DNA of 64,000 nt, taken from sequence record NC_028894.1; one strand, written 5' to 3'. The translations under genes and the position numbers were made by a program. The notes beneath the pieces were generated by a model. It saw only the letters and a program-made list of their open reading frames with translations, searched no databases and was not told the origin of the DNA. The stretch is from Escherichia phage vB_EcoM_VR20. Shown in pieces: positions 7,525 through 62,879 of the stretch; the first letter of the stretch is position 1, and the number at the start of each line of letters is the position of its first letter.

Positions 7525-7555
7525 TTTGTTATCCTCATCAGTAGTTGATGAGATG

Positions 7556-7585
7556 ATTATGTCTCTTTCCATTGGCCTTGTACAC
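7556..7585 (-). promoter_or_regulatory. sigma70-type early promoter, -35 TGTACA, 17-bp spacer, -10 CATAAT, with conserved CATCAACTACTGATGAGGA leader
   Basis: Motif read on minus strand upstream of the 7524 start; member of a repeated promoter family. Confidence 0.5.
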
Positions 7586-7591
7586 TACTTT

Positions 7592-8275
7592 TTATCGTTT
7601 TTTCGGTAAAGATAACGGGTCTGCATCTTCTTCGGAAGGAACTTCATCTAAACCAAGAGCATAGCGCTGGGCATACTTTAACATCAAAATATCTTTCGCG
7701 CAGTCATGTACCGAATCGTGCGCCACAAATCCATCTAAAGTCCCTTTCGGTAATGGGGTTTCACACATCTTACGGACGAGTGACAAGGCTTCGATGGCTG
7801 TCCTGATATCTCGCTGGTTCCAGAATACAACCGGCTCCAGGTTATAGGTATTCAATTCACGCTCAGGAATCCCCTCATTGCGCTGTAGGTCACGGATAAG
7901 GTCGACAAACAACGGGAAGTCAAAAGACATTCCACGGCACCACATAAGGCTTTCGTATTTGTTAATTCCATTACCATTCAGATAGTCAATCGCCTGTTGG
8001 ATACCGGTCAGAGTATCAACATCATGCGCAGAAGGAGCCAGGTTAACACGGGCTTCTGCTGATTGCTTTTTCCACCAACCCATGGTTGTTGTATCGAACA
8101 GACGCTTACCTTTCTGGTATTCTAGGCTGAACTTAATGCGTTTACCGCGATTAACCAGAGTTTCAAAAGATTCCACAATAGCCGGGTCAGATTCGAACGT
8201 AATCAGAGCCAGGTCAATAACGGCTCCCTTCGAGCCGTTTCCCAGAGTTTCAAAGTCAATAATAGCATCAATCAT
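7592..8275 (-). CDS. dexA: exonuclease A (DEDD-family 3'-5' exonuclease)
   Basis: About 227 aa; IIDFETLG N-terminal motif, WCRGMSFDFP and GFVAHDSVHDCAKD regions as I recall T4 DexA; correct position upstream of dda. Confidence 0.8.
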   Translation of the reverse strand: MIDAIIDFETLGNGSKGAVIDLALITFESDPAIVESFETLVNRGKRIKFSLEYQKGKRLFDTTTMGWWKKQSAEARVNLAPSAHDVDTLTGIQQAIDYLNGNGINKYESLMWCRGMSFDFPLFVDLIRDLQRNEGIPERELNTYNLEPVVFWNQRDIRTAIEALSLVRKMCETPLPKGTLDGFVAHDSVHDCAKDILMLKYAQRYALGLDEVPSEEDADPLSLPKKR

Positions 8276-8277
8276 CA

Positions 8278-8352
8278 CACATCTCTTTTAATTTCTGAAT
8301 TTCACCAGCAACCATCGCACATCTCTTTTAATTTCTGAATTTCACCAGCAAC
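8278..8352. repeat. tandem duplication, two 35-bp copies at a 40-bp period
   Basis: cacatctcttttaatttctgaatttcaccagcaac at 8278-8312 and again at 8318-8352; spans the dexA start and the 3' end of the upstream ORF. Confidence 0.85.
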
Positions 8353-8547
8353 ATAGTCGGAGATAAAAATTCCTGGCTCTTCATTGTTAAAATACTCAAT
8401 CGCGGCCATACGTTTCCGAATAAGATTCAGTTCCAGTAAAACGTAATTACCCTGCACGACGATAGTCGGATTATCTTCGAAAAATTCAACCGCGTCCTGA
8501 ATACCATAGATGAGATTATCTAAATCTTCTTTATGTACCTTATACAT
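8302..8547 (-). CDS. small hypothetical protein whose C-terminus is altered by the tandem duplication
   Basis: 81-aa ORF ending EIQKLKEMCDGCW; without the duplication it would end EMCDDD overlapping the dexA start. Confidence 0.45.
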   Translation of the reverse strand: MYKVHKEDLDNLIYGIQDAVEFFEDNPTIVVQGNYVLLELNLIRKRMAAIEYFNNEEPGIFISDYVAGEIQKLKEMCDGCW

Positions 8548-10164: not shown

Positions 10165-10165
10165 A

Positions 10166-10912
10166 TTAACCTCTAATCAGTTTAAAAATTGACGCGTTCA
10201 AAGGTAGACCACGTTTCAGTTTTAATTTACCAATAAAACCAATCTTCTCAAAACGCTCAAGACCTTGAATGATTTTATCATAGCAATCAAAAAGCGTTTC
10301 AGCATTAGTTAATTTCTTGGTAACTTTCCAGTCATTACCTTTGAGCAATACATTCAATTTAGTAAGCTCATGACCTTCCGCAACACGGGAACCATCAATG
10401 CGAGCCTTCAGAGCAACCATTTTTAATTGGTTTTCTTTGGACTGCTCCGATTTACTCATTTGAGCATAATGCTTAACGCGATTCTCACGTTTGTGTTGGA
10501 TGTTCTTGATATGAGTATATGACTTTTTAATCTGTTCCCATTTCTCTGCAGTCAGATTTAACTTTTCAATCTTCTTGGCAGAGGGGCGAGCAATTTTTAC
10601 AGCAACATCATCGCGACGTTGTTTAAGCTCATCAAGGGACCAATCAGAACGCATGGTATTGTATTTCTTTTTAACAGGAATAACATTACCTTTGATATAA
10701 CCAATATCATTGTTAAAACGCTCTAATGATAACTTCTCATCTTCAATAGAGTTGTTAAATGCTTCACCAGAATAAGCACAAACTTTTTGGTCAAGAATGT
10801 TAACCAGATAATTAAAATCCAGGTTAAAGTCCTTACCGCGACGTTTAGCGGAAGCTTGAGTGTGTTCCAGACGACGTTTAACTTTCAGCGTTTTGGTTTT
10901 TGATAAAGTCAT
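10166..10912 (-). CDS. HNH-like nuclease-domain protein, possible freestanding homing endonuclease
   Basis: 248 aa; CAYSGEAF...SLERFNNDIGYIKGNVIPV resembles the core of phage HNH endonucleases, followed by a long basic region; own promoter upstream. Confidence 0.4.
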   Translation of the reverse strand: MTLSKTKTLKVKRRLEHTQASAKRRGKDFNLDFNYLVNILDQKVCAYSGEAFNNSIEDEKLSLERFNNDIGYIKGNVIPVKKKYNTMRSDWSLDELKQRRDDVAVKIARPSAKKIEKLNLTAEKWEQIKKSYTHIKNIQHKRENRVKHYAQMSKSEQSKENQLKMVALKARIDGSRVAEGHELTKLNVLLKGNDWKVTKKLTNAETLFDCYDKIIQGLERFEKIGFIGKLKLKRGLPLNASIFKLIRG

Positions 10913-10957
10913 GATATTTTTCTCATCTTACGGACGATTGAAAACTCAGTATGAAAT

Positions 10958-10986
10958 CATTATACACCATCCATTGGGTGTGTACA
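10958..10986 (-). promoter_or_regulatory. sigma70-type early promoter, -35 TGTACA, about 16-bp spacer, -10 TATAAT
   Basis: Minus-strand motif upstream of the HNH-like gene. Confidence 0.45.
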
Positions 10987-11046
10987 CTACTTTTTCACCT
11001 TTAACGCTTTTATTTTTACTGTGTATAATGGTTCTAAGGTCTTTGG

Positions 11047-11661
11047 TTAGTTCAAAACAGTTAAATGCCAAACAGTATAAAGGTTATTCAATGGGTGTGT
11101 TTCAATCAAATCTACGCGAAGCGTAGTCCCAGCGGGAAACATAAACTCATCCTCATCATTAACCAGGTGTAAGTTTGACTTCCTGGTTGCTTCTGGATAT
11201 GCACCATTGAACTCCTCAGGAGGAGCACCACAAATCATTTTAAAGATTGCTTCCTGATAGTTATACGCATATGGTGCATTGTTTATGCAGAAAATATTCC
11301 TTGTGCCATAGAAACTGTATGATGCGAAATTTCTTGCAACCTGCCAGTCCCTGGAAAAACTCATCACACGGTTGAACTCAATTGTTGCACCAACATATCT
11401 GAAATCTTCCAGGTATTCCATAGTTTTCTTTGATATACCACGGAACAATGCCACCGGCGGTGCAGTATTCAGATTGTTGCGGATAATCCTGGTTAAGTCT
11501 TCTTGAATCAGGTCAGGTTTATTTTCCATACACTGCCAGAGTACCGATTGCTCTTCATCTGTATAAAGAGCATTAATCTCCGCTTGACATTGGTCACGAA
11601 AAGACTCACTAGAGGCAGCAGTGTCAATAATTCCATTCAAAACATCATCAGTGTACAGCAT
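11047..11661 (-). CDS. modA: ADP-ribosyltransferase of the ModA/ModB family (start trimmed to MLYTDD)
   Basis: R-S-EXE-type motifs: LFRG, SFSRD, DEDEFMFPAG; track ORF N-terminus reads through the promoter leader; symbol assigned by gene order only. Confidence 0.6.
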   Translation of the reverse strand: MLYTDDVLNGIIDTAASSESFRDQCQAEINALYTDEEQSVLWQCMENKPDLIQEDLTRIIRNNLNTAPPVALFRGISKKTMEYLEDFRYVGATIEFNRVMSFSRDWQVARNFASYSFYGTRNIFCINNAPYAYNYQEAIFKMICGAPPEEFNGAYPEATRKSNLHLVNDEDEFMFPAGTTLRVDLIETHPLNNLYTVWHLTVLN

Positions 11662-11705
11662 TTTATTATCCTCATCAGTAGTTGATAGGAACATCTTAAC
11701 GTGTC

Positions 11706-12266
11706 TTATTGTGCTTGTACACAGTCAAGAACATAATAATCATCAACAAATCCAGCATCAACCACGACAAATTTCTGGTCAACTGGAACAAACCATTCAA
11801 GCTCAGAATCAATCATGTCCATGTATTCTTCACGTCTTAACGTTGCCGCCTGTTCGGAACCAGAAGCAGTATTGAAGAATTCCAGTGGAACGTCAAGCGC
11901 GATTTTGCGCATAGCATCATGGTAACAAAAAGCTTTTGTATGATTCAATCTGATGATAGTCCTTGATACATATTCCATTGCAGCAAAATCCCTGGCAATA
12001 CCATAGTCTTCTGTAAAGGAGGTTATCCTTCCAAATTCAAAAGGTTGCATTGATTCTTTTGCTTCATCTAACAAATCAATCTCTTGCTGGGTAACACCAC
12101 GATACAAGACTGTATCGGGTACAGATAACCTTGACTTGATGATTGAGTTGACATTTGAATGTAAGGTCTTATCAACCTTTGATGTGCGGCATTCAAATAA
12201 TGAAGCTATCTCCATTTCACTAAATTTTAACTGGTTGGGTTCGGTATCAGATTTGATGATGTTCAT
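11706..12266 (-). CDS. modB: ADP-ribosyltransferase of the ModA/ModB family, paralog of the previous gene
   Basis: LYRG, TSFTED, SELEWFVP motifs; symbol assigned by gene order only. Confidence 0.6.
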   Translation of the reverse strand: MNIIKSDTEPNQLKFSEMEIASLFECRTSKVDKTLHSNVNSIIKSRLSVPDTVLYRGVTQQEIDLLDEAKESMQPFEFGRITSFTEDYGIARDFAAMEYVSRTIIRLNHTKAFCYHDAMRKIALDVPLEFFNTASGSEQAATLRREEYMDMIDSELEWFVPVDQKFVVVDAGFVDDYYVLDCVQAQ

Positions 12267-12322
12267 AATGGCCTCTCTGTTGTAAGAAAGACCATTATGT
12301 CATTGGGAGGGGAGTAAGTAAA

Positions 12323-12613
12323 CTACTTAAATACTCCAAGTGGGACGCCAAAGACTGCAATGTCTACGGCCATGCCAATCGGAGATTGATATGATGAGTA
12401 AGAACTTTTCGATTCTGTCGGGCGTTTGACTTTAATTGTCTCAGATTCAGTCTTAAGCCTTTGTAAGCGATTAATTTTTTGTTGCTCAATTTCCTTATGA
12501 GCATGTTTACGGTCGATATCCAGCGCCGATGTGGGAATATTTGTTAACCAGTTCATCGTTTCACCCATGGTGCCCATGGAGGTGGGTCGTCGTAATATGA
12601 GGCCAGGTCGCAC
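12323..12613 (-). CDS. small hypothetical protein with SSYSSY motif
   Basis: 96-aa ORF. Confidence 0.35.
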   Translation of the reverse strand: MRPGLILRRPTSMGTMGETMNWLTNIPTSALDIDRKHAHKEIEQQKINRLQRLKTESETIKVKRPTESKSSYSSYQSPIGMAVDIAVFGVPLGVFK

Positions 12614-14108: not shown

Positions 14109-14156
14109 CATAGTATTCTCCTCTGTAGTTGAGATAATTATACCATCTCTATTAAA

Positions 14157-14182
14157 AGCAAAAAGGGAACCCGAAGGTTCCC
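14157..14182 (-). terminator. stem-loop terminator, GGGAACC-UUCG-GGUUCCC plus U-run
   Basis: Perfect 7-bp stem, UUCG loop and T-run just after the soc stop. Confidence 0.6.
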
Positions 14183-14187
14183 TATAA

Positions 14188-18037: not shown

Positions 18038-18331
18038 TTATTCACCTGTAACCCATTGAACAATTTTGCTATTGTCAAATGAAGCATCGCAATACAGAAC
18101 ATAGTTATACTGCATAACGTCACCAGAAGTCAATTGGTCAGATACTTCTTTAACCATATCAGGGCGGTCACGTTTAGTAATATTCATGATATCAGCATAA
18201 ATCTGATGTTCAACATCAGTCTGGTCAGCAGTCATAGACCACTCACAAAGGTCTTTATCAAGCCCAGCAGTAACTGGAGCTGTACCACATGATGCTACGG
18301 TAAGAATTGCTGCGATTAATAACTTTTTCAT
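18038..18331 (-). CDS. sp: periplasmic protein, Spackle-like (superinfection exclusion) by size, signal peptide and position
   Basis: 97 aa; signal peptide MKKLLIAAILTVASC; DKDLCEWSMTADQT region resembles T4 Sp as I recall; lies between 61 and 41. Confidence 0.5.
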   Translation of the reverse strand: MKKLLIAAILTVASCGTAPVTAGLDKDLCEWSMTADQTDVEHQIYADIMNITKRDRPDMVKEVSDQLTSGDVMQYNYVLYCDASFDNSKIVQWVTGE

Positions 18332-18391
18332 TTCAATCTCCTCAGTAGTTAATAGGGATAATATACTGCATTACCCCTTTGATGTAAACTG

Positions 18392-18946: not shown

Positions 18947-19264
18947 TTAGATTTCCTCACAAAACGCCCAGTCAGCGTGATAAACTGTTGCGCCTTTAGT
19001 ATCATTTAAGCAAACCACGTCAACAGGTGCAATCACACGATAAAGACGGGGTTCTCCTCCATATGAGCGAGCTGCTCTTCCTGCATAGATACGCGCCAAA
19101 CCAATATCTTCAGTAAAAAACACACGCCCTAAATTTTTCTTACGCCCAACTTCTGACAGAACACCAGTTGCATCAGGAGGACAAAGCATATTTTGGATTC
19201 CAGCATTAGAGCTTGACCCATGATAATAAACTTTGTATTCTGCCTTGCAATCAATGGTTTTCAT
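18947..19264 (-). CDS. hypothetical protein
   Basis: 105-aa ORF. Confidence 0.4.
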   Translation of the reverse strand: MKTIDCKAEYKVYYHGSSSNAGIQNMLCPPDATGVLSEVGRKKNLGRVFFTEDIGLARIYAGRAARSYGGEPRLYRVIAPVDVVCLNDTKGATVYHADWAFCEEI

Positions 19265-19301
19265 TTTATTCTCCAGTAGTTGATAGAGTCATTATAACAT
19301 A

Positions 19302-19323
19302 AGAAAAAGGGGCTGTAAGCCCC
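19302..19323 (-). terminator. stem-loop terminator, GGGGCU-UACA-GCCCC plus U-run
   Basis: Hairpin and T-run after the stop of the 19333..19635 gene. Confidence 0.5.
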
Positions 19324-19332
19324 TTTGTTCAC

Positions 19333-19635
19333 TTACGCCAACTCATAGTTGTGCATAGTCAGACAACGAATTTTCCCAGTAGTTGGGTGCATAACAGTCA
19401 CACTAATTGTGTAATCATCACACACGTTAACAAAAGGTTCAGCGATAACATATACTGCCCCGCCTGCCAACAGGTATTCACGAAGAGAGCTGCGAACAGA
19501 TGAAGGTTGAACATCGCTTTTGAGCTTTATTAATTTACCAGTTTGAATGCCTGATGCGATAAGAGCAGCACAGTTTTCATCACGGCGAGCGAATTGTCCA
19601 AAATAGTAACGATTCATGTCGGTTTGATTAAACAT
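19333..19635 (-). CDS. hypothetical protein
   Basis: 100-aa ORF with its own promoter and terminator. Confidence 0.45.
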   Translation of the reverse strand: MFNQTDMNRYYFGQFARRDENCAALIASGIQTGKLIKLKSDVQPSSVRSSLREYLLAGGAVYVIAEPFVNVCDDYTISVTVMHPTTGKIRCLTMHNYELA

Positions 19636-19685
19636 ATGGTTTTCCTTTTTAACAGTTGGTTTATTGTGTAACTCAGTATGGAATC

Positions 19686-19715
19686 ATTATGCCCTAGTAG
19701 AATTCAGTTGTACAC
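19686..19715 (-). promoter_or_regulatory. sigma70-type early promoter, -35 TGTACA, 17-bp spacer, -10 CATAAT
   Basis: Minus-strand motif between the gene 41 terminator and the 19635 start. Confidence 0.5.
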
Positions 19716-19726
19716 CCTTTTTAAAA

Positions 19727-19747
19727 TAAAAAAGGACCCGAAGGTCC
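19727..19747 (-). terminator. stem-loop terminator, GGACC-UUCG-GGUCC plus U-run
   Basis: Hairpin with UUCG loop immediately after the gene 41 stop. Confidence 0.6.
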
Positions 19748-19750
19748 TTG

Positions 19751-23567: not shown

Positions 23568-23810
23568 TCATTTGGTTTCCTTGATGATAATTACTTGTGC
23601 GTTTGATTTACGTTCAGCAACGAGTGCCCAGATAAATGCAATAAACCATCCAACCATTGTCCAACCCAACAGAAGGTTAACAAAGAAGATTCCGCAATTA
23701 CTTTTGGTACCACGCAGTAGCGCGATAATCCACGGCAGAAAATATGCCAATGCAGCCAAGAATAAAGAACCAGCGCCAAGAACAAAAGTACCCGCAATTA
23801 TTGTTTCCAT
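23568..23810 (-). CDS. imm: small inner-membrane protein, Imm-like (superinfection immunity)
   Basis: 80 aa, two predicted transmembrane segments, directly beside gene 43 as T4 imm. Confidence 0.5.
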   Translation of the reverse strand: METIIAGTFVLGAGSLFLAALAYFLPWIIALLRGTKSNCGIFFVNLLLGWTMVGWFIAFIWALVAERKSNAQVIIIKETK

Positions 23811-23854
23811 TTTAATATCCTCAAGTTTGTCTAGTCATCAGTAGTTGATGAAAG

Positions 23855-23886
23855 AATAATACGGCAATCCATTGCCGTTGTAAACA
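23855..23886 (-). promoter_or_regulatory. sigma70-type early promoter, -35 GTTTACA, 17-bp spacer, -10 TATTAT, conserved CATCAACTACTGA leader
   Basis: Minus-strand motif upstream of imm. Confidence 0.5.
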
Positions 23887-26687: not shown

Positions 26688-26915
26688 TTAAATTTCTATT
26701 GTACGACGTTCGATAGTCGGATTGCCATTTTCATCTTTAGTTCTAACCATAGCCTGGAAGACTCTCTGACCAGGATGCAATAATTTATTGAGTTCCTTTT
26801 GAAATTCTATTTGAAGTTCTTCGGAAAGGTCAAAAATAGTTTGAGTTGGGAAAAGTCCGTATACTTCTTTAAGGCGTTCACATGTTTCAATTTCATGCTT
26901 CATATCAATTACCAA
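26688..26915 (-). CDS. small hypothetical protein
   Basis: 75-aa ORF. Confidence 0.4.
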   Translation of the reverse strand: MVIDMKHEIETCERLKEVYGLFPTQTIFDLSEELQIEFQKELNKLLHPGQRVFQAMVRTKDENGNPTIERRTIEI

Positions 26916-27273
26916 TTGTATATTTGGCTACGAGCTTCCAGTCGTCTTTTTGTTTGAAGGAGATAACACGGAAATTGTTTGTTACTGCGAACAATTCATT
27001 ATGCTCTTCTTCTTTGATAGCGATTAAGCCCCAGTCTTCAAGCAGTTGGGCAATGGAATCACGGCGCTGATAGTCTTCGCCGTCAATATCAACCTGACGA
27101 CCATCCATGCGCAGCATTTCTTTGAAGTGAACAATATAATAACGACCTTGCTTCTGGAGGATGTGGCAGCTCTGGTACAACACACGGTCTTTATTATTTG
27201 CGATGCCCATACGGGTCAGAGTTTCTTTAACTTTCAGGAAGTCTTCAGGTTGCTTTAATGTAATTTCAATCAT
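26905..27273 (-). CDS. regA: RegA translational repressor
   Basis: 122 aa; near-identical stretches to T4 RegA as I recall (MIEITLK.PEDFLKVKETLTRMGIANNKD, YYIVHFKEMLRMDGRQV). Confidence 0.85.
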   Translation of the reverse strand: MIEITLKQPEDFLKVKETLTRMGIANNKDRVLYQSCHILQKQGRYYIVHFKEMLRMDGRQVDIDGEDYQRRDSIAQLLEDWGLIAIKEEEHNELFAVTNNFRVISFKQKDDWKLVAKYTIGN

Positions 27274-29383: not shown

Positions 29384-29393
29384 TTTATTCTCC

Positions 29394-29411: not shown

Positions 29412-29414
29412 TTA

Positions 29415-37769: not shown

Positions 37770-37940
37770 TTTAATTTCCTTAGCTATCGAACAAAATACA
37801 CCACGGTCACAAATCATTTTAATATTAAGGTCAATTATGGTATACCACACATCCAGGCTAGATATTTCAGTTACTAGAACAGCTTTGCCGTTGATTGAAT
37901 AATACTGGTTGACTTTAATTTCTTTATCTTGGATAGTCAT
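37770..37940 (-). CDS. small hypothetical protein, not in the ORF track
   Basis: Hand translation MTIQDKEIKVNQYYSINGKAVLVTEISSLDV...; sits directly downstream of a family promoter and GAGGA site. Confidence 0.35.
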
Positions 37941-37971
37941 AATGTTTTCCTCATCAGTAGTTGATGGGATA

Positions 37972-38000
37972 ATGATACACCATTCAAAGGGGCTTGTACA
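37972..38000 (-). promoter_or_regulatory. sigma70-type early promoter, -35 TGTACA, 17-bp spacer, -10 TATCAT, conserved TATCCCATCAACTACTGATGAGGA leader
   Basis: Minus-strand motif upstream of the 37940 start. Confidence 0.5.
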
Positions 38001-38008
38001 CCCCTTTT

Positions 38009-38326
38009 TTAATCTTCAATTAAGTCCTGGTCATACCCCAGGGATATCAGTTTTGTTTTAAAGGCAGGAATATTGGTCATTTTTTCATCATTGACAAAAA
38101 TCACCGGGTAACGAATGTTAAGGGTAGGATATCCAGCACGCTTAGCCAGAGACACGATTAAAGGCCTGTCATAAGCGATTTCAGAGCCTTGTTTGTTAAG
38201 GACTGAATAGAATGTATAAGGAAGGTTTAAGGAGCCCAGAAGGCTCCTGACGTGCATACAACCAGGGCATCGACCGACTTCTTCGGGGATACCATAGATT
38301 TCAATCTTAGTCGAGTTTTGGCCCAC
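38009..38326 (-). CDS. nrdH: glutaredoxin-like protein, NrdH-like
   Basis: 105 aa; CPGC redox motif near N-terminus; located beside nrdG and nrdD. Confidence 0.55.
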   Translation of the reverse strand: MGQNSTKIEIYGIPEEVGRCPGCMHVRSLLGSLNLPYTFYSVLNKQGSEIAYDRPLIVSLAKRAGYPTLNIRYPVIFVNDEKMTNIPAFKTKLISLGYDQDLIED

Positions 38327-43291: not shown

Positions 43292-43555
43292 TCATTTGAA
43301 ATATTCTCGCAGTTCATTGAACCCACCAATATGACTTCCGTCCGGAGCAAACACTTGGGGCATAGTCAAGCCAATTTGAGATTCGCGACCAAGTGCAGCC
43401 AGGAGTTGAGCAATCTTCTCATCAGCAAACACACCTTTTTCTGGCATAACGTTGATGAATTCGTAAGGTTGTTTTTTAACATCCAAAAAACGTTTTGCAT
43501 TATCGCAGAATACACAGCGATGAATAGATGAATCATAACCATATACTTTAAACAT
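43292..43555 (-). CDS. nrdC: thioredoxin/glutaredoxin NrdC
   Basis: 87 aa; near-identical to T4 NrdC as I recall (MFKVYGYDS...CV.CDNAKR, LTMPQVFAPDGSHIGGF). Confidence 0.85.
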   Translation of the reverse strand: MFKVYGYDSSIHRCVFCDNAKRFLDVKKQPYEFINVMPEKGVFADEKIAQLLAALGRESQIGLTMPQVFAPDGSHIGGFNELREYFK

Positions 43556-43556
43556 A

Positions 43557-43814
43557 TTATTCCTTAATTCCTAATACTTGTTTGAAGGTCTCAGTATAAT
43601 CGGAGTATTGACCGGTTTGTTCTTTATGTTTGACCATAATACCATAAACATCTGAACGCATATTATTATATGAACGAGTTAAAGCAGATTTCAATACTGA
43701 ATAACTATCCGGAAGTTTACCGTGTTCTTTATAATAGGCCAGAGTTAATTCACGGACCGCCTTATCAGCAGTCTCAAGATATTCTTTACGCTTTGCCATT
43801 TTCTTCTCGCTCAA
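43557..43814 (-). CDS. small hypothetical protein
   Basis: 85-aa ORF. Confidence 0.4.
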
Positions 43815-44010
43815 ATCGGTGTTTACAATGTCTGCATTTATATTGAAGCGGAGAGCTACGCCAATAAGTCAATTGGACCTGTTCAGTTCCACATTCAGGG
43901 CAGTTCGGAACGTTTTTAGAAGCGCGTTCACGTCGTTCGACAATTTTAATAATCGCATTCCAATCAGGAATCCCGTATTCTGCAATGTCTTCTCTTAAAC
44001 GTTGTTTCAT
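43786..44010 (-). CDS. small zinc-ribbon protein
   Basis: 74 aa; CPECG...CRHCKH. Confidence 0.4.
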
Positions 44011-44999
44011 TTCAGCAGCTCCAGAGCCTGCTCCAGTTTATCCAGACGATTGGTTGATTCTTCCCAAAGTCGCTTGACTTTTGTATAGTCTTCCGTTGCC
44101 TTTTTATTAACAGCAAGAGCTTCATTATACGCTGTTTCCAGGGCAACAATTTCAGGCGCTTTTTGTTTCACTGGTTCATTATTCAGATTATCAATCAGGT
44201 CTTCAAGGGTGGTAACTTCTTGCGGTGTATTCATAATTTCCTCATTTTTCTTTTTATAGATTTCTGCAATAGTTGGTTGTTTTGCGCATTTAACTTCGCG
44301 TAATGTCACCGCAATTTTCCAACCTTTCCAACCATGAGCACTGGTGATAGGGTCTACTTTAATTTTTTCAACAGTGCGCATATAATTAAGGGCACACTGT
44401 ACCTGATGAGTAAGAACACATGCAATATCAAGATACTTTTTAACATTTTCTGGGGTAGCTTGTGGAGTAAAGAACTCATACTTAACTGTAATAATTACCT
44501 GGTTTTCACCAGACTCTTTAACATTTATCATGTGCTCAGCCAGATGGGAGATAGTGCGAAAATCACCACCCATCAATTTTGTCGCTGATTTGATGATAGA
44601 CATTTTGTTATCTCTGAATTCACGTGCCCAGCAATTTGCGAATTCAGAAGCAGTATAGCCTTGTTTATCGAGATAGTATTTTTCAACATCACCAAACCAA
44701 TGATATCCAATTGTACCTTTACCGCGTCTGGATTCAACACCAAACTTATTAAGAAGGTCTTTATTAACCAGGTATGCCAGGACTCGGGAACCTTTAAAAG
44801 TTTTCTTGATATCATCGTTACCAGCACGACTCGCAATAGTTGCAATGTCTTTCTTGAAGCGGCCAGATGCAACAATCGTCGAGTCAATCTGATTTAACCA
44901 GAAATTGATAATTGAAAGGATAGCCGATTCACCTATTAATGGTTTTACTTTTGAATCGATAGTGGTGTTAAAGGCCTGGATATATTCATTACGTGTCAT
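44007..44999 (-). CDS. hypothetical protein with C-terminal coiled coil
   Basis: 330-aa ORF. Confidence 0.5.
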   Translation of the reverse strand: MTRNEYIQAFNTTIDSKVKPLIGESAILSIINFWLNQIDSTIVASGRFKKDIATIASRAGNDDIKKTFKGSRVLAYLVNKDLLNKFGVESRRGKGTIGYHWFGDVEKYYLDKQGYTASEFANCWAREFRDNKMSIIKSATKLMGGDFRTISHLAEHMINVKESGENQVIITVKYEFFTPQATPENVKKYLDIACVLTHQVQCALNYMRTVEKIKVDPITSAHGWKGWKIAVTLREVKCAKQPTIAEIYKKKNEEIMNTPQEVTTLEDLIDNLNNEPVKQKAPEIVALETAYNEALAVNKKATEDYTKVKRLWEESTNRLDKLEQALELLK

Positions 45000-45057
45000 A
45001 GTGTTCTCCTCATAAAGTAGGAATTCATTATACTCCCTCCATCCTTGGAAGTAAACA

Positions 45058-47169: not shown

Positions 47170-47694
47170 TTATGCGAGAACCGTCTTTAAACGCTCTTCA
47201 AACTTCTGAAGGAGTACATGGCGCTCTGCTCTTTGTTTGATATAGGTTTCAATACGCTCTGAAGTGAGATTGTATTGTTCATTAACTGATTCCCTCATGA
47301 ATTCAGGAATCTCTTTACATGCTTTGATTTCATTGAACTTATCAAGCACCGCTTGTTGTTCAGCAATCAGACCATCATAATATTGGATATCTGATTTGAT
47401 GTTTTGTACATCAGATTCAGTAGGCATATTTTTCTTTGCTCTTGCCGCTTGATATTCTGCATTAGTCTCTCTTGACCAGAACAAAGAGCGGTTTTTGTTG
47501 GTGTTTTTATATACATCAACAATACCAACTGAATCAACAGTCACAATCCAGTTCCAGGCGTTTTTATAAGTTTGACCACCTGATACTGTAATCTCACCCG
47601 CACAAGCAACATCATTAAAGAACTTGCTTTGCGCTTCTGATTTAAAATTACCATTATTGTAATTAATCAGATTAAAGATTGATTTAGCTTCCAT
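47170..47694 (-). CDS. hypothetical protein
   Basis: 174-aa ORF with family promoter upstream. Confidence 0.45.
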   Translation of the reverse strand: MEAKSIFNLINYNNGNFKSEAQSKFFNDVACAGEITVSGGQTYKNAWNWIVTVDSVGIVDVYKNTNKNRSLFWSRETNAEYQAARAKKNMPTESDVQNIKSDIQYYDGLIAEQQAVLDKFNEIKACKEIPEFMRESVNEQYNLTSERIETYIKQRAERHVLLQKFEERLKTVLA

Positions 47695-47762
47695 TTTATT
47701 CTCCAGTATTTGGTAACTCAGTATGGGAACATTATACGTCTATCCCCATACTATGTACACCT

Positions 47763-48071: not shown

Positions 48072-48290
48072 TCACTTGCGACGACGTTTTGGTAATGGTT
48101 TAGGGAAGAACATTGCTTTACCTGCAGGGGTCAAAGTCACACGCAAAGCATTACCAATACCAAGGGATGCTTTAACCAGACCTTTGGCTTTTAACTCGCC
48201 AAATGCTTGACGTTGTTCAGGGTCACGAGTGTTAACCATCAGACCTTTTTCACCAGCAGCTTTGATTAATTCTAACATTTTATTCTCCAT
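48072..48290 (-). CDS. small hypothetical protein
   Basis: 72-aa ORF. Confidence 0.4.
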   Translation of the reverse strand: MENKMLELIKAAGEKGLMVNTRDPEQRQAFGELKAKGLVKASLGIGNALRVTLTPAGKAMFFPKPLPKRRRK

Positions 48291-48360
48291 TTGTTTATTT
48301 GGTAACTCAGTATGGAATCATTATGCATCATGACCATCTGGTTGTACACTACTTTTTAAA

Positions 48361-48385
48361 ATAAAAAAGGACCCCGAAGGGTCCT
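48361..48385 (-). terminator. stem-loop terminator, AGGACCC-UUCG-GGGUCCU plus U-run
   Basis: Hairpin with UUCG loop and T-run after the stop of the 48392..49432 gene. Confidence 0.6.
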
Positions 48386-48391
48386 TAGAAT

Positions 48392-51417: not shown

Positions 51418-51620
51418 TATTCCACCACATATGATAATGAGAAAATTGCTGATGAAAGATGAGTAGCATCTTCTTCACACAGTTCAAATGGAGCTTTCTG
51501 CAAGAGTTCAACCACTTCTTCATCAGTGGCACTGTCCATAAAGATTGCATAATCGTTAAGATAGATAACAACCTCATCACCAGTATTAACTGCATCAATC
51601 TTGATGTTCTTAATTCTCAT
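51417..51620 (-). CDS. small hypothetical protein (start trimmed to MRIKNIKID)
   Basis: Track ORF 51417..51701 reads through the conserved leader (STTEENTM); trimmed. Confidence 0.4.
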   Translation of the reverse strand: MRIKNIKIDAVNTGDEVVIYLNDYAIFMDSATDEEVVELLQKAPFELCEEDATHLSSAIFSLSYVVE

Positions 51621-51648
51621 TGTATTCTCCTCAGTAGTTGATGGGATA

Positions 51649-51678
51649 ATAGTACACCCTTTTGATGAGGATGTAAAC
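51649..51678 (-). promoter_or_regulatory. sigma70-type early promoter, -35 GTTTACA, 17-bp spacer, -10 TACTAT, conserved TATCCCATCAACTACTGAGGAG leader
   Basis: Minus-strand motif between the terminator at 51690-51716 and the 51620 start. Confidence 0.5.
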
Positions 51679-51689
51679 CCCCTAAATGA

Positions 51690-51716
51690 AAAAAGGTCCA
51701 CCCGAAGGCAGACCTT
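51690..51716 (-). terminator. stem-loop terminator with UUCG loop plus U-run
   Basis: GGUCUGCC-UUCG-GGUGGACC (two G-U wobble pairs) followed by T-run, after the stop of 51722..52105. Confidence 0.5.
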
Positions 51717-51721
51717 TTGAA

Positions 51722-55076: not shown

Positions 55077-55535
55077 CTAGATATAAATCACTTTTGTGCT
55101 AATTTTTCCTTCCAGACGATTAGAGTTAACAAACGCCATACGACAACACATGGTTGGAGACTTCCCAGGTAATGCCGGGTTAACTGTCATTCCTAACCAT
55201 AGGTTCTTGTCTGTGATTTCCAGACGAAGTGGACGGTAGTTCACATTCGGGTCAATTTGTGCTTCAACTTCTGGAAGCGGTTCCATTTTTAAGAATTCAA
55301 CAATTTCTTTTACATGTGGTGTGATTTTTCCAAACAAGTCAAAAACATATTGTTCGTCAATTTCACGTTGGATTGCACGGTCCAACAGGTGTGGACTGTA
55401 CTTAATGAAGAATGCTTCAAGGCCTGCTTCTTTACAAGCCTTGTTGATAGCATTATTAATTTTGAGGAACTCCGTTTCAAAAATACGACGAAGTTTATTG
55501 CGGCGAATGTAAACACTTGAATCAATAGTAGTCAT
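55077..55535 (-). CDS. regB: RegB endoribonuclease (start trimmed to MTTIDSS)
   Basis: About 152 aa from the trimmed start; VYIRRNKLRR, YSPHLLDRAIQREIDEQYVFDLF, YRPLRLEITDKNLWLG match T4 RegB as I recall. Confidence 0.8.
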   Translation of the reverse strand: MTTIDSSVYIRRNKLRRIFETEFLKINNAINKACKEAGLEAFFIKYSPHLLDRAIQREIDEQYVFDLFGKITPHVKEIVEFLKMEPLPEVEAQIDPNVNYRPLRLEITDKNLWLGMTVNPALPGKSPTMCCRMAFVNSNRLEGKISTKVIYI

Positions 55536-55563
55536 GATTATCTCCTTTTGTTTGATGGGATAA

Positions 55564-55591
55564 TCATAACTCATTTCAACCTGCTTGTACA

Positions 55592-55592
<1 letters not shown>
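55564..55592 (-). promoter_or_regulatory. sigma70-type early promoter, -35 TGTACA, 17-bp spacer, -10 TATGAT, TATCCCATCAAAC leader
   Basis: Minus-strand motif immediately upstream of regB. Confidence 0.5.
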
Positions 55593-57366: not shown

Positions 57367-57666
57367 TTAGAAAGAACCAGAGCCTTTAATTGTGTTCTGG
57401 CGACCTTTATTTTCTAATTCAGAATGGTCAATTTCATATGCTTGTGCTACGCCAAAGGCCTTTTTAACTTTAGCTAAAGAACCTTTAGATGTAACAATAT
57501 TAAAAGTATTACCTTTAGTAAAATCAACCAAATCCACTTGTACACCTTGTTTACCGAGGCTTGCGACAATAGCATCAACATATTGTTGGTCTAAATTGCC
57601 CTGGACTCCGATTTGAAATGCTTTAGGAGCTTTAGCTTCTGTGATAAATTCTTGATAAGTTTTCAT
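57367..57666 (-). CDS. internal-protein-like gene 1 with capsid-targeting sequence
   Basis: 99 aa beginning MKTYQEFITEAK, matching the conserved N-terminal targeting and prohead-protease cleavage sequence of T4 internal proteins. Confidence 0.6.
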   Translation of the reverse strand: MKTYQEFITEAKAPKAFQIGVQGNLDQQYVDAIVASLGKQGVQVDLVDFTKGNTFNIVTSKGSLAKVKKAFGVAQAYEIDHSELENKGRQNTIKGSGSF

Positions 57667-57722
57667 TTATTCTCTCCAAGTTGATGGGATAATTATGCAC
57701 TATCCCATCAAAAAGTAAACAG

Positions 57723-57986: not shown

Positions 57987-57999
57987 AATGTCTCTTTAA

Positions 58000-58314
58000 T
58001 TAAGCTTTAGGGAAATCGCGCAAAAACGCATCATAAAGTTTATTACCAATACGACGGAATGCTTTTGCTGCATGAACGTTATCCGGGTTTGCAATTTTAA
58101 TCTGCATTACATGACTACCCGCCCATGATTTAGCTTCGTCATAATAACCTTTAATTTCTTTAATAGTCTTGCGTTTGCCGCCAGGACCATCAACAGTAAT
58201 TTTCCACGAACCCGTGCTTGTTTCACTTGGTGGGGTTAATTGTTCAATCCAGACATAACCGCCTTCAACACGTTTTTGGGTGGATTCAGTAATAAATTCT
58301 TGATAAGTTTTCAT
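58000..58314 (-). CDS. internal-protein-like gene 3 with capsid-targeting sequence (start trimmed to MKTYQEFITE)
   Basis: Track ORF 58000..58353 contains MKTYQEFITEST at residue 14; trimmed to that Met. Confidence 0.55.
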   Translation of the reverse strand: MKTYQEFITESTQKRVEGGYVWIEQLTPPSETSTGSWKITVDGPGGKRKTIKEIKGYYDEAKSWAGSHVMQIKIANPDNVHAAKAFRRIGNKLYDAFLRDFPKA

Positions 58315-58362
58315 TTTATATTCCATTGTTTGGTTGATAAAATCATTATACAACCTTTTTAG

Positions 58363-58779
58363 TTAAGCGTACACAGCTTTCCCATAGTATTTGTACCAGG
58401 TAGGCTTTTGAGAAATTTTCTCATTCAATCTGGCTTGACTGATTTCAATTGACCAGATTGATGGTTGATAATCATTCTTCCATTCATCAGGAATATCATT
58501 TAAATCTTGGGTAGAAATATCTTTTATGTTAAACCCTCGCTTTAAACATTCCGCAATAAGTTCTTGATGACGGTTTTTAAGGAACAAAAGTTTATCATAA
58601 AAGAAGGTGACATGACCAGTCCCTAAAAGAAAAGATGATGGGATTTTAAAGTCAGAAACCTTTTTACCATTTTGTACATGTTTGCGAACCGCACCAAACA
58701 CGCGAGGAAGCTCACGATATTCAGCCATAAGATGTTGGTCAGCAAGTTCAGATACCAGGGTTAAATTAATGCGAGTCAT
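58363..58779 (-). CDS. denV: endonuclease V (pyrimidine dimer DNA glycosylase)
   Basis: 138 aa; [35 protein letters not shown] and [10 protein letters not shown] match T4 DenV as I recall. Confidence 0.9.
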
Positions 58780-58805
58780 GTTTGTTCCTCCAAGTAGTTG
58801 ATGGG

Positions 58806-58838
58806 ATAATAATACATCAATACGAGGAGGTTGTAAAC
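58806..58838 (-). promoter_or_regulatory. sigma70-type early promoter, -35 GTTTACA, 17-bp spacer, -10 TATTAT, TATCCCATCAACTACTTGGAGGA leader
   Basis: Minus-strand motif upstream of denV, overlapping the 3' end of the internal-protein-like gene 4. Confidence 0.5.
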
Positions 58839-59601: not shown

Positions 59602-59627
59602 AATACCCCCTTATATAGGGGTATTTA

Positions 59628-60309: not shown

Positions 60310-60896
60310 TTACGGCATTCCTCAATAAAAGAGTTCAATGTATTTTTCTTATTGATATCGTCATATAGCTTTTTAACTTTAGAAATACGAAAAGGTACTT
60401 CAATAGCCATAGTCCATAAAAATGATGCAATAAGTCCAATAGCAGCAGAAGAAACACACGCGCCCATTACAGCTACAGGTGCTTCATTTTTACCTGTCAA
60501 GAAAAACAACAGGATTGGTAAAAATAAGATTCCAGCCCACGCATAAAACCTGGAACAAATTAACTTATCAAATTCATCTTTCCAGGTACGAAATCCATAT
60601 TTCTTGCTATAAGAAATTAATGGGTCAGGTGTCTGTTCTTTGAGTGGTTCTGGTTGATGTCCATTAATGATGTATCCCATTTTATATTCCTTAATTAAAA
60701 GCTCTTTCACATGACGATTGCATCGCGACCAATCAACATTTTCCACCTTGATTCCTTCATCACCATCATCAAGGTTCGCCCAATATTTTTTGGTAATCAT
60801 AAATTCGTCTCTTGATACAATTATACCTGCATTTTCTGCCCGGCGGATGAAGTTTACATCAACACCCATGCACCCAGGTTCATACAGCATTACCAT
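60306..60896 (-). CDS. membrane protein
   Basis: 196 aa with two hydrophobic segments in the C-terminal half. Confidence 0.45.
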   Translation of the reverse strand: MVMLYEPGCMGVDVNFIRRAENAGIIVSRDEFMITKKYWANLDDGDEGIKVENVDWSRCNRHVKELLIKEYKMGYIINGHQPEPLKEQTPDPLISYSKKYGFRTWKDEFDKLICSRFYAWAGILFLPILLFFLTGKNEAPVAVMGACVSSAAIGLIASFLWTMAIEVPFRISKVKKLYDDINKKNTLNSFIEECRK

Positions 60897-61576
60897 CCCT
60901 CCATAGGGAATTCCAGATATACTTGAGCATTAACGCGGATTTCATTTGTAATCTTTTTAACACGGTCGGTATTACGAGACACACGACCAAACCAGCGCCA
61001 CCCGTTACTTACTGCACGAGAACCTGTATGCCATGTCTGCCAATCAAACTGGAGCAACGTGCGGTCAGGAGCATCCCACTTGGTTAATTCATTGGACTCA
61101 ATTTTTTCCAGAACTTCTTTATGCCACTGGCGATAGATAAGTTCACCTTCAGGAATCTGACTAAATTGGGCAGTTCCGGTTGCAAAATAAGTAGGACACA
61201 CATCAGCGTTAACAAGACCAAGAATATGTTCAGAATGGTAACGAGGATTATCATAATCAGGTTGCCCTGCAGTAATAAAGTGTTGACCAACCGGAATATC
61301 CGGACGCGGTACATCATCATGGTGATAACCTGGGATAGCAGGATACCAACCAGGCATTAACATATGTACACGAGAATCGAATACGACATTTTCATTAGTC
61401 CAATCAATCGGAAGATTGGTAATAAAACTACGAGTGATTGGGCCGCCTTTATCCCAAGCAAAACTCAAATCACAGTTAAAGAACATCGGTTCATTTTTGA
61501 TTTGATCGTTTTGAACATCGTGAGCAAAACCACTTACGGCACGAGCTCGGCTATTAAACACTTTAGAACTATTCAT
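60890..61576 (-). CDS. hypothetical protein
   Basis: 228-aa ORF with GAGGA site. Confidence 0.45.
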   Translation of the reverse strand: MNSSKVFNSRARAVSGFAHDVQNDQIKNEPMFFNCDLSFAWDKGGPITRSFITNLPIDWTNENVVFDSRVHMLMPGWYPAIPGYHHDDVPRPDIPVGQHFITAGQPDYDNPRYHSEHILGLVNADVCPTYFATGTAQFSQIPEGELIYRQWHKEVLEKIESNELTKWDAPDRTLLQFDWQTWHTGSRAVSNGWRWFGRVSRNTDRVKKITNEIRVNAQVYLEFPMEGW

Positions 61577-61635
61577 AATATTTTCCTCATTGATTGTGGG
61601 ACCATTGTGTCATGGTCCCACTTGGATGTACACAC

Positions 61636-62595
61636 TTATTTTGTGAAAGGGCGAATTAAATGTTGGTTAGCCTTGAAGCGTTTAACATAGTCTTCGCGAC
61701 CCAGGGTGTTGTACATATTAACCACTTCCTGGTAATGTTCCCAGGCATACTCACGGAACCATCCAGAAGTAATGGAGGTACAGACTTTTTCCAGTGCAAT
61801 ATGGAAGCTCACGGATGGAGAAATATTGAACTCATTAGGAACCTGCGAACGCTCCAGAGCGAGCACACATGCTTCTTCATAAACCCCTGCCAGTTTAATA
61901 ACATCAGGGAGTGCTTCAAATTTTTCACGTGAGGTCATGACTTCTGAATCATCCTTCATATAGAACTTATATGCAGGCTTATCAGCAAGCGCCACGGCCT
62001 CGTGGATGGAGTCATGGTCAAGGGTATAGATTGTATCATTAAAGAAAGTTTTCTTGCCCACGTCTAGTTTAGGGTGACTGTATGACAGTGTTTCTGCCTG
62101 ACGCTGCAGCATGATTTTCTGCAGCTCATCATTAAGAACAATACCCTTATTGCGAAGGTAATTAATATGACTCATGGTCTTCAGGAAGAATGGATTGTTC
62201 TTCAGGTAACGATGAGATAATTTAATTGCCAGACAAATATCAGGAGTCGCCCAGTAAAAACCTGTAAGACGGTCCTTTTTAATATGATTTTCAGCATATT
62301 TCAGGAGACGATAACTTGAGGTGAAATCTTCGTCTTGAAGCTCGCCAGTAATTTCTCGTACGTTGGTCAGGGCACGGACAATATAAGCTTCAAAATAGGT
62401 TTCTTTGCCATTGTACATACATTTAAAAGCTTGGACATCAGGGTTATCCACAGGAATATGAGCACCGAACATACGTGCTTTAAAGTGGTTCCATGAGCCT
62501 TGGTCGGCAATGAAATCCCAATCAGAGTTTTCAATTTTCTGACTTTCAATCAGACCAGCGTTATGTAATGCACGAGAACCAATAACTAACATCAT
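61636..62595 (-). CDS. hypothetical protein
   Basis: 319-aa ORF. Confidence 0.5.
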   Translation of the reverse strand: MMLVIGSRALHNAGLIESQKIENSDWDFIADQGSWNHFKARMFGAHIPVDNPDVQAFKCMYNGKETYFEAYIVRALTNVREITGELQDEDFTSSYRLLKYAENHIKKDRLTGFYWATPDICLAIKLSHRYLKNNPFFLKTMSHINYLRNKGIVLNDELQKIMLQRQAETLSYSHPKLDVGKKTFFNDTIYTLDHDSIHEAVALADKPAYKFYMKDDSEVMTSREKFEALPDVIKLAGVYEEACVLALERSQVPNEFNISPSVSFHIALEKVCTSITSGWFREYAWEHYQEVVNMYNTLGREDYVKRFKANQHLIRPFTK

Positions 62596-62608
62596 AATAT
62601 TTTCCTCA

Positions 62609-62776
62609 TTAGTAAAGACGAGTTACTTCATATTTTCCAAGTGCCGATTTTTTCGCTTCAATTCGTGAGGCAGCAAGATTGGCGGCCTCTAGTGAAGAAA
62701 ATTGAACCACTTGAGAAGTATTCTGTCTTACTCCACCTTGCGGGTGAGTGACAAAAACAATAAGAACATTATACAT
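62609..62776 (-). CDS. small hypothetical protein, not in the ORF track
   Basis: Hand translation MYNVLIVFVTHPQGGVRQNTSQVVQFSSLEAANLAASRIEAKKSALGKYEVTRLY; follows a family promoter. Confidence 0.35.
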   Translation of the reverse strand: MYNVLIVFVTHPQGGVRQNTSQVVQFSSLEAANLAASRIEAKKSALGKYEVTRLY

Positions 62777-62879
62777 AATATTTTCCTCATTAGTTGACGA
62801 GATAATGATACTACGTTTCTTTAGGCTTGTACACTAAATTTCTGCACATAAGTCCTCCTATCACATCCTTGTGATAATT

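Follow-up and report, generated by a model that had tools for sequence, protein, structure and literature searches.

The early promoters (Pe) of bacteriophage T4 were reportedly treated by Liebig and Rueger (1989), Wilkens and Rueger (1994) and Miller et al. (2003), and Repoila et al. (EMBO J, 1994) are said to have described repeats of ~70 bp that flank the internal-protein genes of T-even phages, with an early promoter and an overlapping inverted repeat before each gene. T4 Pe have been reviewed (PMC2988021), and T4-type phages are reported to carry promoter-early stem-loop (PeSL) units, cassettes that are both regulatory and mobile (Arbiol et al. 2010, PMC2839356; Comeau et al. 2014, PMC4122927); inverse PCR and reporter assays were used to demonstrate mini-circles formed when such cassettes recombine, and their activity as promoters and terminators (PMC2839356). 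RegB with S1 cuts at GG*AGRAYARAA (in T4, GGAGAAUAAAA) and also accepts GGAU, provided that the A-rich part conforms strictly (Durand et al. 2006, PMC1702504; Uzan and Miller 2010, PMC3014915), and nothing specific is required 5' of GGAG (Durand et al. 2006, PMC1702504). Strong phage promoters, T5 N25 among them, are affected by their initial transcribed sequence (ITS; Kammerer et al. 1986, as cited in PMC5961368); polymerase pauses during initiation at YG steps near +6, and fast-escaping sequences are free of initiation-pause motifs (Heyduk and Heyduk 2018, PMC5961368). Here we analysed a stretch of 64,000 nucleotides from Escherichia phage vB_EcoM_VR20 (NC_028894.1; hereafter the window), in which reading of each site revealed 21 sigma-70 early-promoter cassettes, all on the minus strand, most of them with a conserved initial transcribed leader. 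With a probability that we put at about 0.8, these are immediate-early promoters of a T4-like phage, built as compact units of promoter, leader and ribosome-binding site of the Pe/PeSL kind. The cassettes thus belong to an already described kind of element (PMC2839356, PMC4122927, PMC2988021).

The window is the early-gene arm of a Gaprivervirus (Straboviridae, Tevenvirinae; a T4-like coliphage). A 4-kb piece was 93–97% identical to Gaprivervirus Escherichia phages, all genes lie on the minus strand, and the whole length is syntenic with ~0–70 kb of the T4 map (rIIA, topoisomerase, dda, modA/B, primase, gene 41, uvsX, DNA polymerase, 44/62/45, 46/47, 55, nrdD/G, the nrdC region, tk, regB, denV and e). 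Over roughly the alignable half of the window, nucleotide identity to T4 is 72% (72.5%) on average. The promoter motif is far more frequent than base composition predicts. The 18-mer TATCCCATCAACTACTGA, with up to three mismatches, matched seven times, always on the minus strand, compared with 0.07 expected; leader k-mers were the top over-represented 9- and 10-mers of the minus strand, with ATCAACTACT present seven times against 0.09 expected; and GTKTACA-N18-ANNNT gave 16 matches, all on the minus strand, against 1.9 expected, a number reached in 0 of 100 shuffles. By contrast, a generic scan of the window for sigma-70 promoters and terminators returned 63 promoter-like sites versus 57 expected and was uninformative because the DNA is AT-rich. 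Only the family-specific pattern is significant, and the signal resides in family-specific sequence.

The initial annotation had proposed a single leader family, and every position that it listed does carry a site. Twelve of the 21 cassettes share the leader ATCAACTACTGA(T)GAGGA, which we term class A; there are, however, two leader classes rather than one. Class B, ATACTGAGTTACC (ATACTGAGTT...; ATACTGAGTTACCAAATAAAC...GGAGAATAAAATG), was found in four cassettes, with +1 at 48313, 47724, 19679 and 10952. The sites at 10958 and 19686 had been placed in the single family, but their leader is ATACTGAGTT..., in common with 48313 and 47724, which had gone unlisted. Neither leader is present in the other five cassettes (-35 at 61633, 58374, 45056, 12323 and 6507). 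Within class A, the sites at 55564 and 57690 exist as predicted but with the leader reduced to ATCAA(C), and at 14142 a -10 hexamer is followed by the leader, shortened by a 3-nt deletion, while no -35 can be recognised. The spacer, given as 16–17 bp, is 17 bp when counted from the 7-mer, and 16 bp at two sites only. The identification as early promoters is supported: the sites have T4 geometry, lie upstream of orthologues of T4 early genes, and include several positional orthologues of T4 promoters that start with ATCAACTAC.

The anatomy of the cassettes was examined by aligning the 20 promoters with a -35 on their -10 hexamer. A cassette consists of (often) a terminator or stem-loop around the -35, an A-rich upstream stretch, GTKTACA, the 17-bp spacer, a -10 hexamer of consensus TAnnnT (TAnnAT), a C-rich discriminator of 6 nt (TATCCC) and an A at +1. 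This is followed by the G-free ITS AUCAACUACU, a strong Shine-Dalgarno sequence (SD; GAGG/GGAG) and the AUG, which class A places at +20 to +26 and class B at +31 to +45; in all 20 cassettes scored the ATG, at +19 to +44, is preceded by an SD (GGAG/GAGG/AGGA). Information is raised just 5' of the -35 (consensus aaaAAA), where the upstream region is weaker and less uniform than the tttttcacaaaac of T4. In class A, the information per position was 1.29 bits for the -35, 0.43 for the spacer, 1.17 for the -10, 0.86 for the discriminator and 1.29 for +1 to +12, the last value being partly circular because the class is defined by its leader. Among all 20 promoters, selected on -35 and -10 alone, +1 to +12 still held 0.61 bits compared with 0.28 for the spacer.

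The distance from the -10 hexamer to ATCAAC or ATACTG is a constant 6 nt in the 20 aligned promoters, and all seven exact copies of ATCAACTA on the gene strand lie precisely 6 nt after a TAnnnT hexamer. The usual start of transcription is the seventh base after the -10. In the T4 record, the annotated 'Pe133295' coincides with the predicted +1 of a promoter whose -35 starts at 133331, so that the ATCAAC start invariably occupies the early-start position of that record. On the strength of the usual start and of this coincidence, ATCAACUACU would be the 5' end of the mRNA, in line with the proposal of a conserved initial transcribed leader. Class A has no G from +1 to +10, and therefore no YG step before +10/+11, whereas class B has TG at +5/+6.

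To examine the prevalence of the family, the whole T4 genome was scanned, which revealed ~17 promoters of the form tttttcacaaaacNGTTTACa-N-tggTACTAT-acaact-ATCAACTACTGA. These class A-type promoters precede denB, ndd, motA, frd.2, ipI, trna.4, e.8, denV, mobD.5, nrdC.8, imm.1, sp, dexA, cef, regB and others, and the spacers of some paralogues among them hardly differ. A 33-nt class A query retrieved 778 phage records, essentially all T4-like, with Escherichia, Shigella, Klebsiella, Yersinia, Salmonella and Citrobacter as hosts; the same query found 7–9 places per Gaprivervirus genome and 1–4 elsewhere. In RB69 the element is degenerate, in that many promoters start with ATC or ATCAAC and few have the full 12-mer. 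Class B is nearly confined to Gaprivervirus (VR7, VR25, SP18, TH44 and others), with 10–14 places per genome by BLAST. It looks like a relative of class A with a 5-nt deletion (CCAT[CAACT]ACTGAG), and also like the counterpart of the long T4 leader ATCAACTACTGATACAG...TTGGAGAATAAAATG. A scan of viral contigs for ANNNT-N6-ATCAACTACTGA (14 specified bases) returned almost only chance matches in unrelated contigs, and a full-text literature search for the motif string returned only unrelated primer sequences. A likeness of TTATCCCAT to a DnaA box, judged by eye, was dropped, the T4 equivalents being without it.

Three comparisons argue that the ITS is itself selected rather than carried along with its neighbours. 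Ten promoter pairs were aligned with their T4 positional orthologues, among them denV, sp, the promoter after gene 43, regB, motB and srd. At denV, at sp and after gene 43 the promoters are class A in both genera with unrelated spacers and discriminators; mobD.5 and 55.6 are class A in the window only; and nrdC.8 is class A in T4 and class B in the window. Leaders have therefore been swapped among sites while the sequence itself was retained. Next, paralogues within the window (n = 11) and within T4 (n = 13) were compared. Identity over the ITS (+1 to +12) was 0.76 between genera and 0.77 and 0.74 within the two genomes, while identity over the discriminator was 0.57 and 0.52 within genomes and 0.31 between them (p = 0.001). 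Discriminator, -10 variant and upstream region were all genome-specific (p <= 0.001), and the spacer was near random among paralogues everywhere (0.3–0.4 identity). The uniform, lineage-specific discriminator and -10 are what concerted evolution would be expected to leave, and lineage-specific selection fits them equally. Finally, polymorphism was scored against TH40, TH41 and TH57, relatives that are 90–97% identical. The ITS varied at 14/516 positions and the spacer at 58/770 (p = 1.7e-4), making the ITS ~3-fold less variable; the discriminator (19/258, p = 0.004) and the first 90 coding bases (213/3994, p = 0.01) also exceeded the ITS.

Comparison with the same three relatives supported the suggestion that terminator and promoter travel together as cassettes at which genes are shuffled, as the breakpoints lie inside cassettes. 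Alignment of the window with TH57, TH40 and TH41 gave 34 distinct structural differences, eight of which are bounded inside a cassette (-35 to ATG, 2.6% of the window), against 1.4 by random placement (P = 5e-5), a lenient null, since an indel of whole genes can only have its ends in intergenic positions. The places and contents of the differences tell more than these counts. Junctions were located at the -35, at the ATG, or in the stretch from the -10 to the leader. At cassette 62834 (cassettes are named here by the position of their -35), an indel of 575/840 nt in TH57/TH41 lies between 62789/90 and 62832/3, and TH57 has two additional ORFs and another ATCAAC promoter in place of this single cassette. 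At denV, homology with the relatives breaks at 58805/6. TH57 and the window become homologous again exactly at ATCAACTAC; upstream of it their promoters differ and the window has an extra 93-aa ORF. Further breakpoints are found at 57666/7 in TH40 and TH41 and at 18390/1 in TH40, which also carries an insertion of 1011 nt bounded at 48349/50. A series of modules follows gene 41. TH57 and TH40 have one module there (class A and a 105-aa ORF), the window has two (a UUCG terminator, class B and a 100-aa ORF, then class A and an ORF), and TH41 has three, with an additional UUCG terminator, class A leader and ~80-aa ORF in front; the module 19327–19750 is missing from TH57 and TH40. In a comparison with UPEC01 over 33–43 kb, the indels touch no cassette.

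Recombination of this kind raises the alternative that the leader has no function and that, after recent duplication or gene conversion, the ITS merely hitch-hikes between a selected -10 and a selected SD. The cassettes do recombine, their discriminators, -10 variants and upstream regions bear the mark of concerted evolution in being more alike within than between genomes, and some T4 paralogues share nearly identical spacers. The spacer, however, also sits between selected elements and is near random (0.43 bits in class A), whereas the ITS is as well conserved between genera whose proteins are 30–80% identical as it is within each genome, and is the less variable of the two among close relatives. 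We therefore regard hitch-hiking as unlikely. A different possibility is that +1 to +12 is a recognition tag, as DNA or as RNA 5' end, for a phage or host factor that co-controls a subset of immediate-early promoters, for example in early-promoter shut-off. The strict coupling to promoters and the conservation across genera would suit such a tag, as would the fact that AUCAACUACUGA is common to a promoter subset in at least two genera while spacers and discriminators drift or are lineage-specific. According to reviews, the mechanism of early-promoter shut-off in T4 is not understood (PMC2988021, PMC3014915), and T4 early promoters have extra consensus regions without an assigned role (PMC2988021). 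Nevertheless, only about half of the early promoters carry the sequence, it has neither dyad symmetry nor structure, no candidate binding factor is known, and in RB69 it degenerates to ATC/ATCAAC, all of which makes a tag quite unlikely. If it did exist, the fate of the mRNA might depend on its 5' end, and the largely Gaprivervirus-specific class B would be a second tag.

The leader could instead serve mainly in translation, as an enhancer that docks S1 or pairs with 16S rRNA like the epsilon sequence of T7. It is G-free, rich in A, C and U, unstructured and directly 5' of a strong SD, and with the AUG at +20 to +26 it lies within the 30S footprint. Yet the motif was never found, on the gene strand, upstream of the many internal SDs of promoter-less genes, and its best duplex with E. 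coli 16S rRNA (-8.3 kcal/mol, against a shuffle mean of -9.4) is weaker than that of most shuffles; an epsilon-type enhancer was rejected, and a mainly translational role is in our view very unlikely. Structure was also considered, the initial annotation having asked whether the leader forms one. A stem of 4–5 bp (CAUCA-ACUAC-UGAUG) can be drawn in the GAT-containing variants and in the long T4 leaders, with an apparently compensatory UAUCA/UGAUA in T4. However, this stem is worth only -0.6 kcal/mol and is absent from the GAGGAG variants, and the 'covarying' T4 pair falls at -1, outside the predicted transcript. Minimum free energies were 0 to -1.3 kcal/mol for 18 of 20 leaders, z-scores relative to shuffles were above 0 for 18 of 20, and an Rfam scan of the window returned no match at the gathering threshold. 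With no stable fold and no curated RNA family match, a structured cis-regulatory leader was rejected, and a regulatory hairpin is highly improbable. As for coding, the initial annotation treated the N-terminal extensions as spurious, and read-through of the leader was confirmed for MERDIIISSTTDEDNKM, MFLSTTDEDNKM and ...STTEENTM. Eight of the 12 class A leaders are in frame with the ATG and stop-free, and these might be taken for real extensions (STTDEDNKM and the like). But there is no start codon from +1 to the SD-proximal ATG, any in-frame ATG/GTG further upstream falls in the promoter spacer or the terminator, four of the 12 leaders are out of frame or stopped, and the T4 orthologues denV, sp and regB begin at the short ATG. 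The shared frame follows from the fixed distances between +1, SD and ATG and from the 3-nt (GAT) indel, so that we give genuine coding almost no credence.

In the reading that we favour, of immediate-early promoter-leader units, unmodified host sigma-70 RNA polymerase would fire the promoters once the DNA enters the cell, and the very short, unstructured leader with its strong SD would allow immediate ribosome loading and translation, as has been shown for T4 in both respects. The leader 3' half is the SD and in many cases also a predicted RegB/S1 site, with the 5' half AUCAACUACU outside it. Matches to GGA(G/U)RAYARAA were 11/11 in 5 of 20 leaders (+1 at 7549, 11686, 19284, 47724 and 48313) and 10/11 in 3 of 20, and poor in the other 12. 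Since the SD is embedded in this site, RegB could inactivate these mRNAs; as shown for T4, it would cut the GGAG/GGAU of the subset (~8/20 leaders) minutes later. The window encodes a RegB orthologue (55077..55535, minus strand; 60% amino-acid identity to T4 RegB), itself behind one of the cassettes, and its product would be an endoribonuclease expected to act at GGAG/GGAU. Upstream terminators would insulate each module, again as shown for T4, and the repeated cassettes may provide patches of homology where gene modules are inserted, deleted or replaced. The sequence from +1 to +12 would act at initiation, at escape or as the mRNA 5' end, and not as a general translation signal, because it is under constraint of its own, is conserved across genera and is strictly coupled to promoters. 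From the sequence comparisons we infer that its function is tied to the promoter or the 5' end; efficient escape is a plausible role, class A having no YG step.

Several points weigh against parts of this account. An early promoter can do without the class A leader, which is absent from 9 of the 21 cassettes. The TG that class B has at +5/+6 is a motif associated with pausing at initiation (PMC5961368), so that no single 'fast escape' rationale covers both classes; the two may differ kinetically. The polymorphism contrast is weak when class A is taken by itself (8/252 versus 24/377, p = 0.09), and the three relatives are non-independent samples. When the 19 gene-scale indels are judged against gene junctions, ~16% of which carry a cassette, the eight observed compare with about four expected (an estimate), roughly a two-fold excess. 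ORFs without a T4 homologue are not significantly more frequent behind cassettes than elsewhere in the window (8/19 versus 31/115, p = 0.18). Promoter activity and the +1 in this phage are predictions based on the geometry and on T4.

Orthologues of T4 early genes lie downstream of 11 of the 21 cassettes (including denV, sp, imm, regB, mobD.5, 55.6, srd and motB). Among class A, cassette 62774..62834 has -35 GTGTACA at 62834, -10 TATCAT at 62810–62805, +1 at 62798 (GTCAACTAATGAGG) and ATG at 62776, followed by a 55-aa ORF without a T4 homologue. The denV cassette (58777..58838; GTTTACA, TATTAT, +1 58802, ATCAACTACTTGGAGG, ATG 58779) is the positional orthologue of T4 promoter 65413. Partial leaders are found at 57664..57720 (ATCAACTTGGAGAG; +1 57685, ATG 57666), before an internal-protein-like gene (MKTYQEFITE...), and at 55533..55592 (ATCAAACAAAAGGAG; +1 55556, ATG 55535), upstream of regB. 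The mobD.5 orthologue is preceded by 51618..51718, which begins with a UUCG terminator (-35 GTTTACA 51678, -10 TACTAT, +1 51642, ATCAACTACTGAGGAGAATACAATG), and the 55.6 orthologue by 37938..38010, where the -35 lies within the stem-loop GGGGTGTACAAGCCCC (-10 TATCAT, +1 37965, ATG 37940). Directly after the DNA polymerase gene 43 and upstream of imm, cassette 23808..23885 (+1 23849), orthologous to T4 27080, has a leader of 39 nt and a spacer hairpin, CGGCAA/TTGCCG. In 19262..19332 the -35 is in the loop of stem-loop AAAGGGGCTTACAGCCCCTTT, which has a T-run (-10 TATAAT, +1 19284, ATCAACTACTGGAGAATAAAATG; RegB site 11/11), and 18329..18389 serves sp (spackle; +1 18353, ATTAACTACTGAGGAG; T4 20109 orthologue). 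The cassette of the mrh.2 orthologue, 14109..14183, consists of a UUCG terminator, -10 TATAAT at 14142–14137 and the 3-nt-deleted leader TCAACTACAGAGGAG (+1 ~14131), the site without a recognisable -35. A ModA/ModB-like gene follows 11659..11722 (-10 TAAGAT, +1 11686, ATCAACTACTGATGAGGATAATAAAATG; RegB site 11/11), and an 85-aa ORF without a T4 homologue follows 7522..7585 (-10 CATAAT, +1 7549, ATCAACTACTGATGAGGATAACAAAATG).

The class B cassettes are 48276..48386, with a UUCG terminator and +1 at 48313 (ATACTGAGTTACCAAATAAACAAATGGAGAATAAAATG); 47692..47760, before the nrdC.8 orthologue, whose T4 counterpart promoter 53943 is the class A one; 19633..19749, with a UUCG terminator and the 100-aa ORF; and 10910..10987, before srd, with a 40-nt leader in which CGTCCGTAAGATG is common to the T4 srd leader. 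The five cassettes with neither leader are early-promoter-like. They are 61574..61633 (ACAATCAATGAGGAAAATATTATG); 58312..58374 (ATCAACCAAACAATGGAA), with a second internal-protein-like gene downstream; 44997..45056, before the nrdC.4 orthologue and orthologous to T4 50973; 12264..12323, upstream of a ModB-like gene; and 6433..6507, before motB, whose leader starts ACTGGAGAATAAAC and which corresponds to T4 7215. A clear stem-loop or terminator is present in ~8 of the 21 cassettes, the remainder being without a convincing stem. Terminators with a UUCG tetraloop directly before several sites had been predicted, and four were found (51718–51691, 48386–48367, 19749–19732 and 14183–14164); three cassettes (38001, 19320 and 51678) carry the -35 within the loop of a G/C stem, and the spacer forms a hairpin at 23885. 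Two more UUCG-tetraloop terminators with T-runs (4866–4881 and 2768–2785, minus strand) have no promoter cassette after them, and TH41 has a 390-nt insertion exactly at 4866–4881.

Other observations were made along the way. The genes at 57367–57666 and 58000–58314 (minus strand), located between denV and the vs genes, are paralogues that both start MKTYQEFITE, each behind its own cassette, and the locus differs among TH40, TH41 and TH57. We take this start to be the capsid-targeting leader of T4 internal proteins. The spacer motif CAATGGA is common to three otherwise different promoters (-35 at 7585, 10987 and 23885), and in 23885 it forms the loop region of the CGGCAA/TTGCCG hairpin. A perfect GTTTACA-N17-TATAAT at 42403–42432 (minus strand) lies inside a coding region (gene 49.1 region) and is kept at the same place in T4 (47452) and RB69 (48625); it may be an internal promoter for downstream genes. 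The translation initiation region AATGAGGAAAATATTATG recurs (e.g. 62776–62790 and 61576–61590, minus strand), and AATGAGGAAA is present six times. AATGAGGAAAATATTATG resembles the AU-rich targets of the T4 RegA repressor; a regA orthologue is present at 26905–27273. In nrdD (minus-strand ORF 39412–41229), a 1.3-kb tract at 39395–40691 is 94.6% identical at the nucleotide level to T4 43518–44814. In T4 the tract stops where the nrdD group I intron (I-TevII) is inserted, while nrdD in the window is intronless; the tract looks like one of co-conversion or recent exchange beside a homing site. Between the clamp-loader gene 44 and the clamp gene 45, an insertion of 550–600 nt (28780–29455) that is not in TH40, TH41 or TH57 contains an ORF (28805–29455) with a weak match to the T4 mobD HNH homing endonuclease.

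The cassettes would define early transcription units of a Gaprivervirus, for which the reference record VR7 has no annotated promoters in the region inspected, and would correct the starts of at least five genes (7524, 11661, 14111, 51620 and 55535) that mechanical ORF calling makes too long. The locus after gene 41, with one, two or three promoter-ORF modules, is a clean example of PeSL-type modular exchange, and the constraint on the first ~12 transcribed bases bears on the role of the 'additional regions of consensus' in T4 early promoters. Nothing in these findings would surprise a T4 specialist.

Compared with T4 Pe, the promoters have the same GTTTAC-type -35, 17-bp spacer, TAnnnT -10, A-rich upstream region and +1 A; many T4 Pe also start with ATCAACTACTGA, and several window promoters are their positional orthologues. 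They differ in that GTGTAC is as frequent as GTTTAC at the -35, the -10 is TATNAT/CATAAT instead of the TACTAT of the class A-type subclass in T4, the discriminator is TATCCC instead of ACAACT, and the largely genus-specific class B leader (ATACTGAGTTACC...) replaces the long ATCAACTACTGATACAG leader. With PeSL they share the repeated intergenic arrangement of early promoter, stem-loop or terminator, SD and start codon, and indels and replacements among close relatives that end within cassettes; unlike PeSL, only ~8 of the 21 have a clear stem-loop, and the hairpins are of the UUCG-tetraloop type in contrast to the poly-G/poly-C stems of RB49. The PeSL papers (PMC2839356, PMC4122927) do not draw attention to a cross-genus conservation of the transcribed start. 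Many leader 3' halves are exactly the RegB/S1 11-mer GGAGRAYARAA, single-stranded and in the SD of an early gene; however, only 8 of 20 leaders reach at least 10/11 against it, several (among them those with +1 at 37965 and 62798) contain GGAA, reportedly a poor substrate, and the 5' half lies outside the site. As in the ~70-bp repeats of T-even phages, the two internal-protein-like genes stand behind cassettes (58374 and 57720) in a locus polymorphic among relatives, but the cassettes span the whole early arm and not internal-protein loci alone. Like T5 N25, these would be very strong early phage promoters with a conserved stretch downstream of +1, and class A, without G or a YG step from +1 to +10, resembles fast-escaping sequences in this respect; the sequence itself is unrelated to that of N25, and class B has its TG at +5/+6.

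Collectively, the cassettes show the T4 Pe features tested, the stem-loop subset shows those of PeSL as well, and leader 3' halves match the RegB/S1 site. The ATCAAC start is not claimed as new and may already be described in Liebig and Rueger (1989) or Miller et al. (2003). What goes slightly beyond the literature consulted is the cross-genus constraint on the first 12 bases as opposed to the lineage-specific discriminator, the largely Gaprivervirus-specific class B leader, and the series of one, two and three modules after gene 41.

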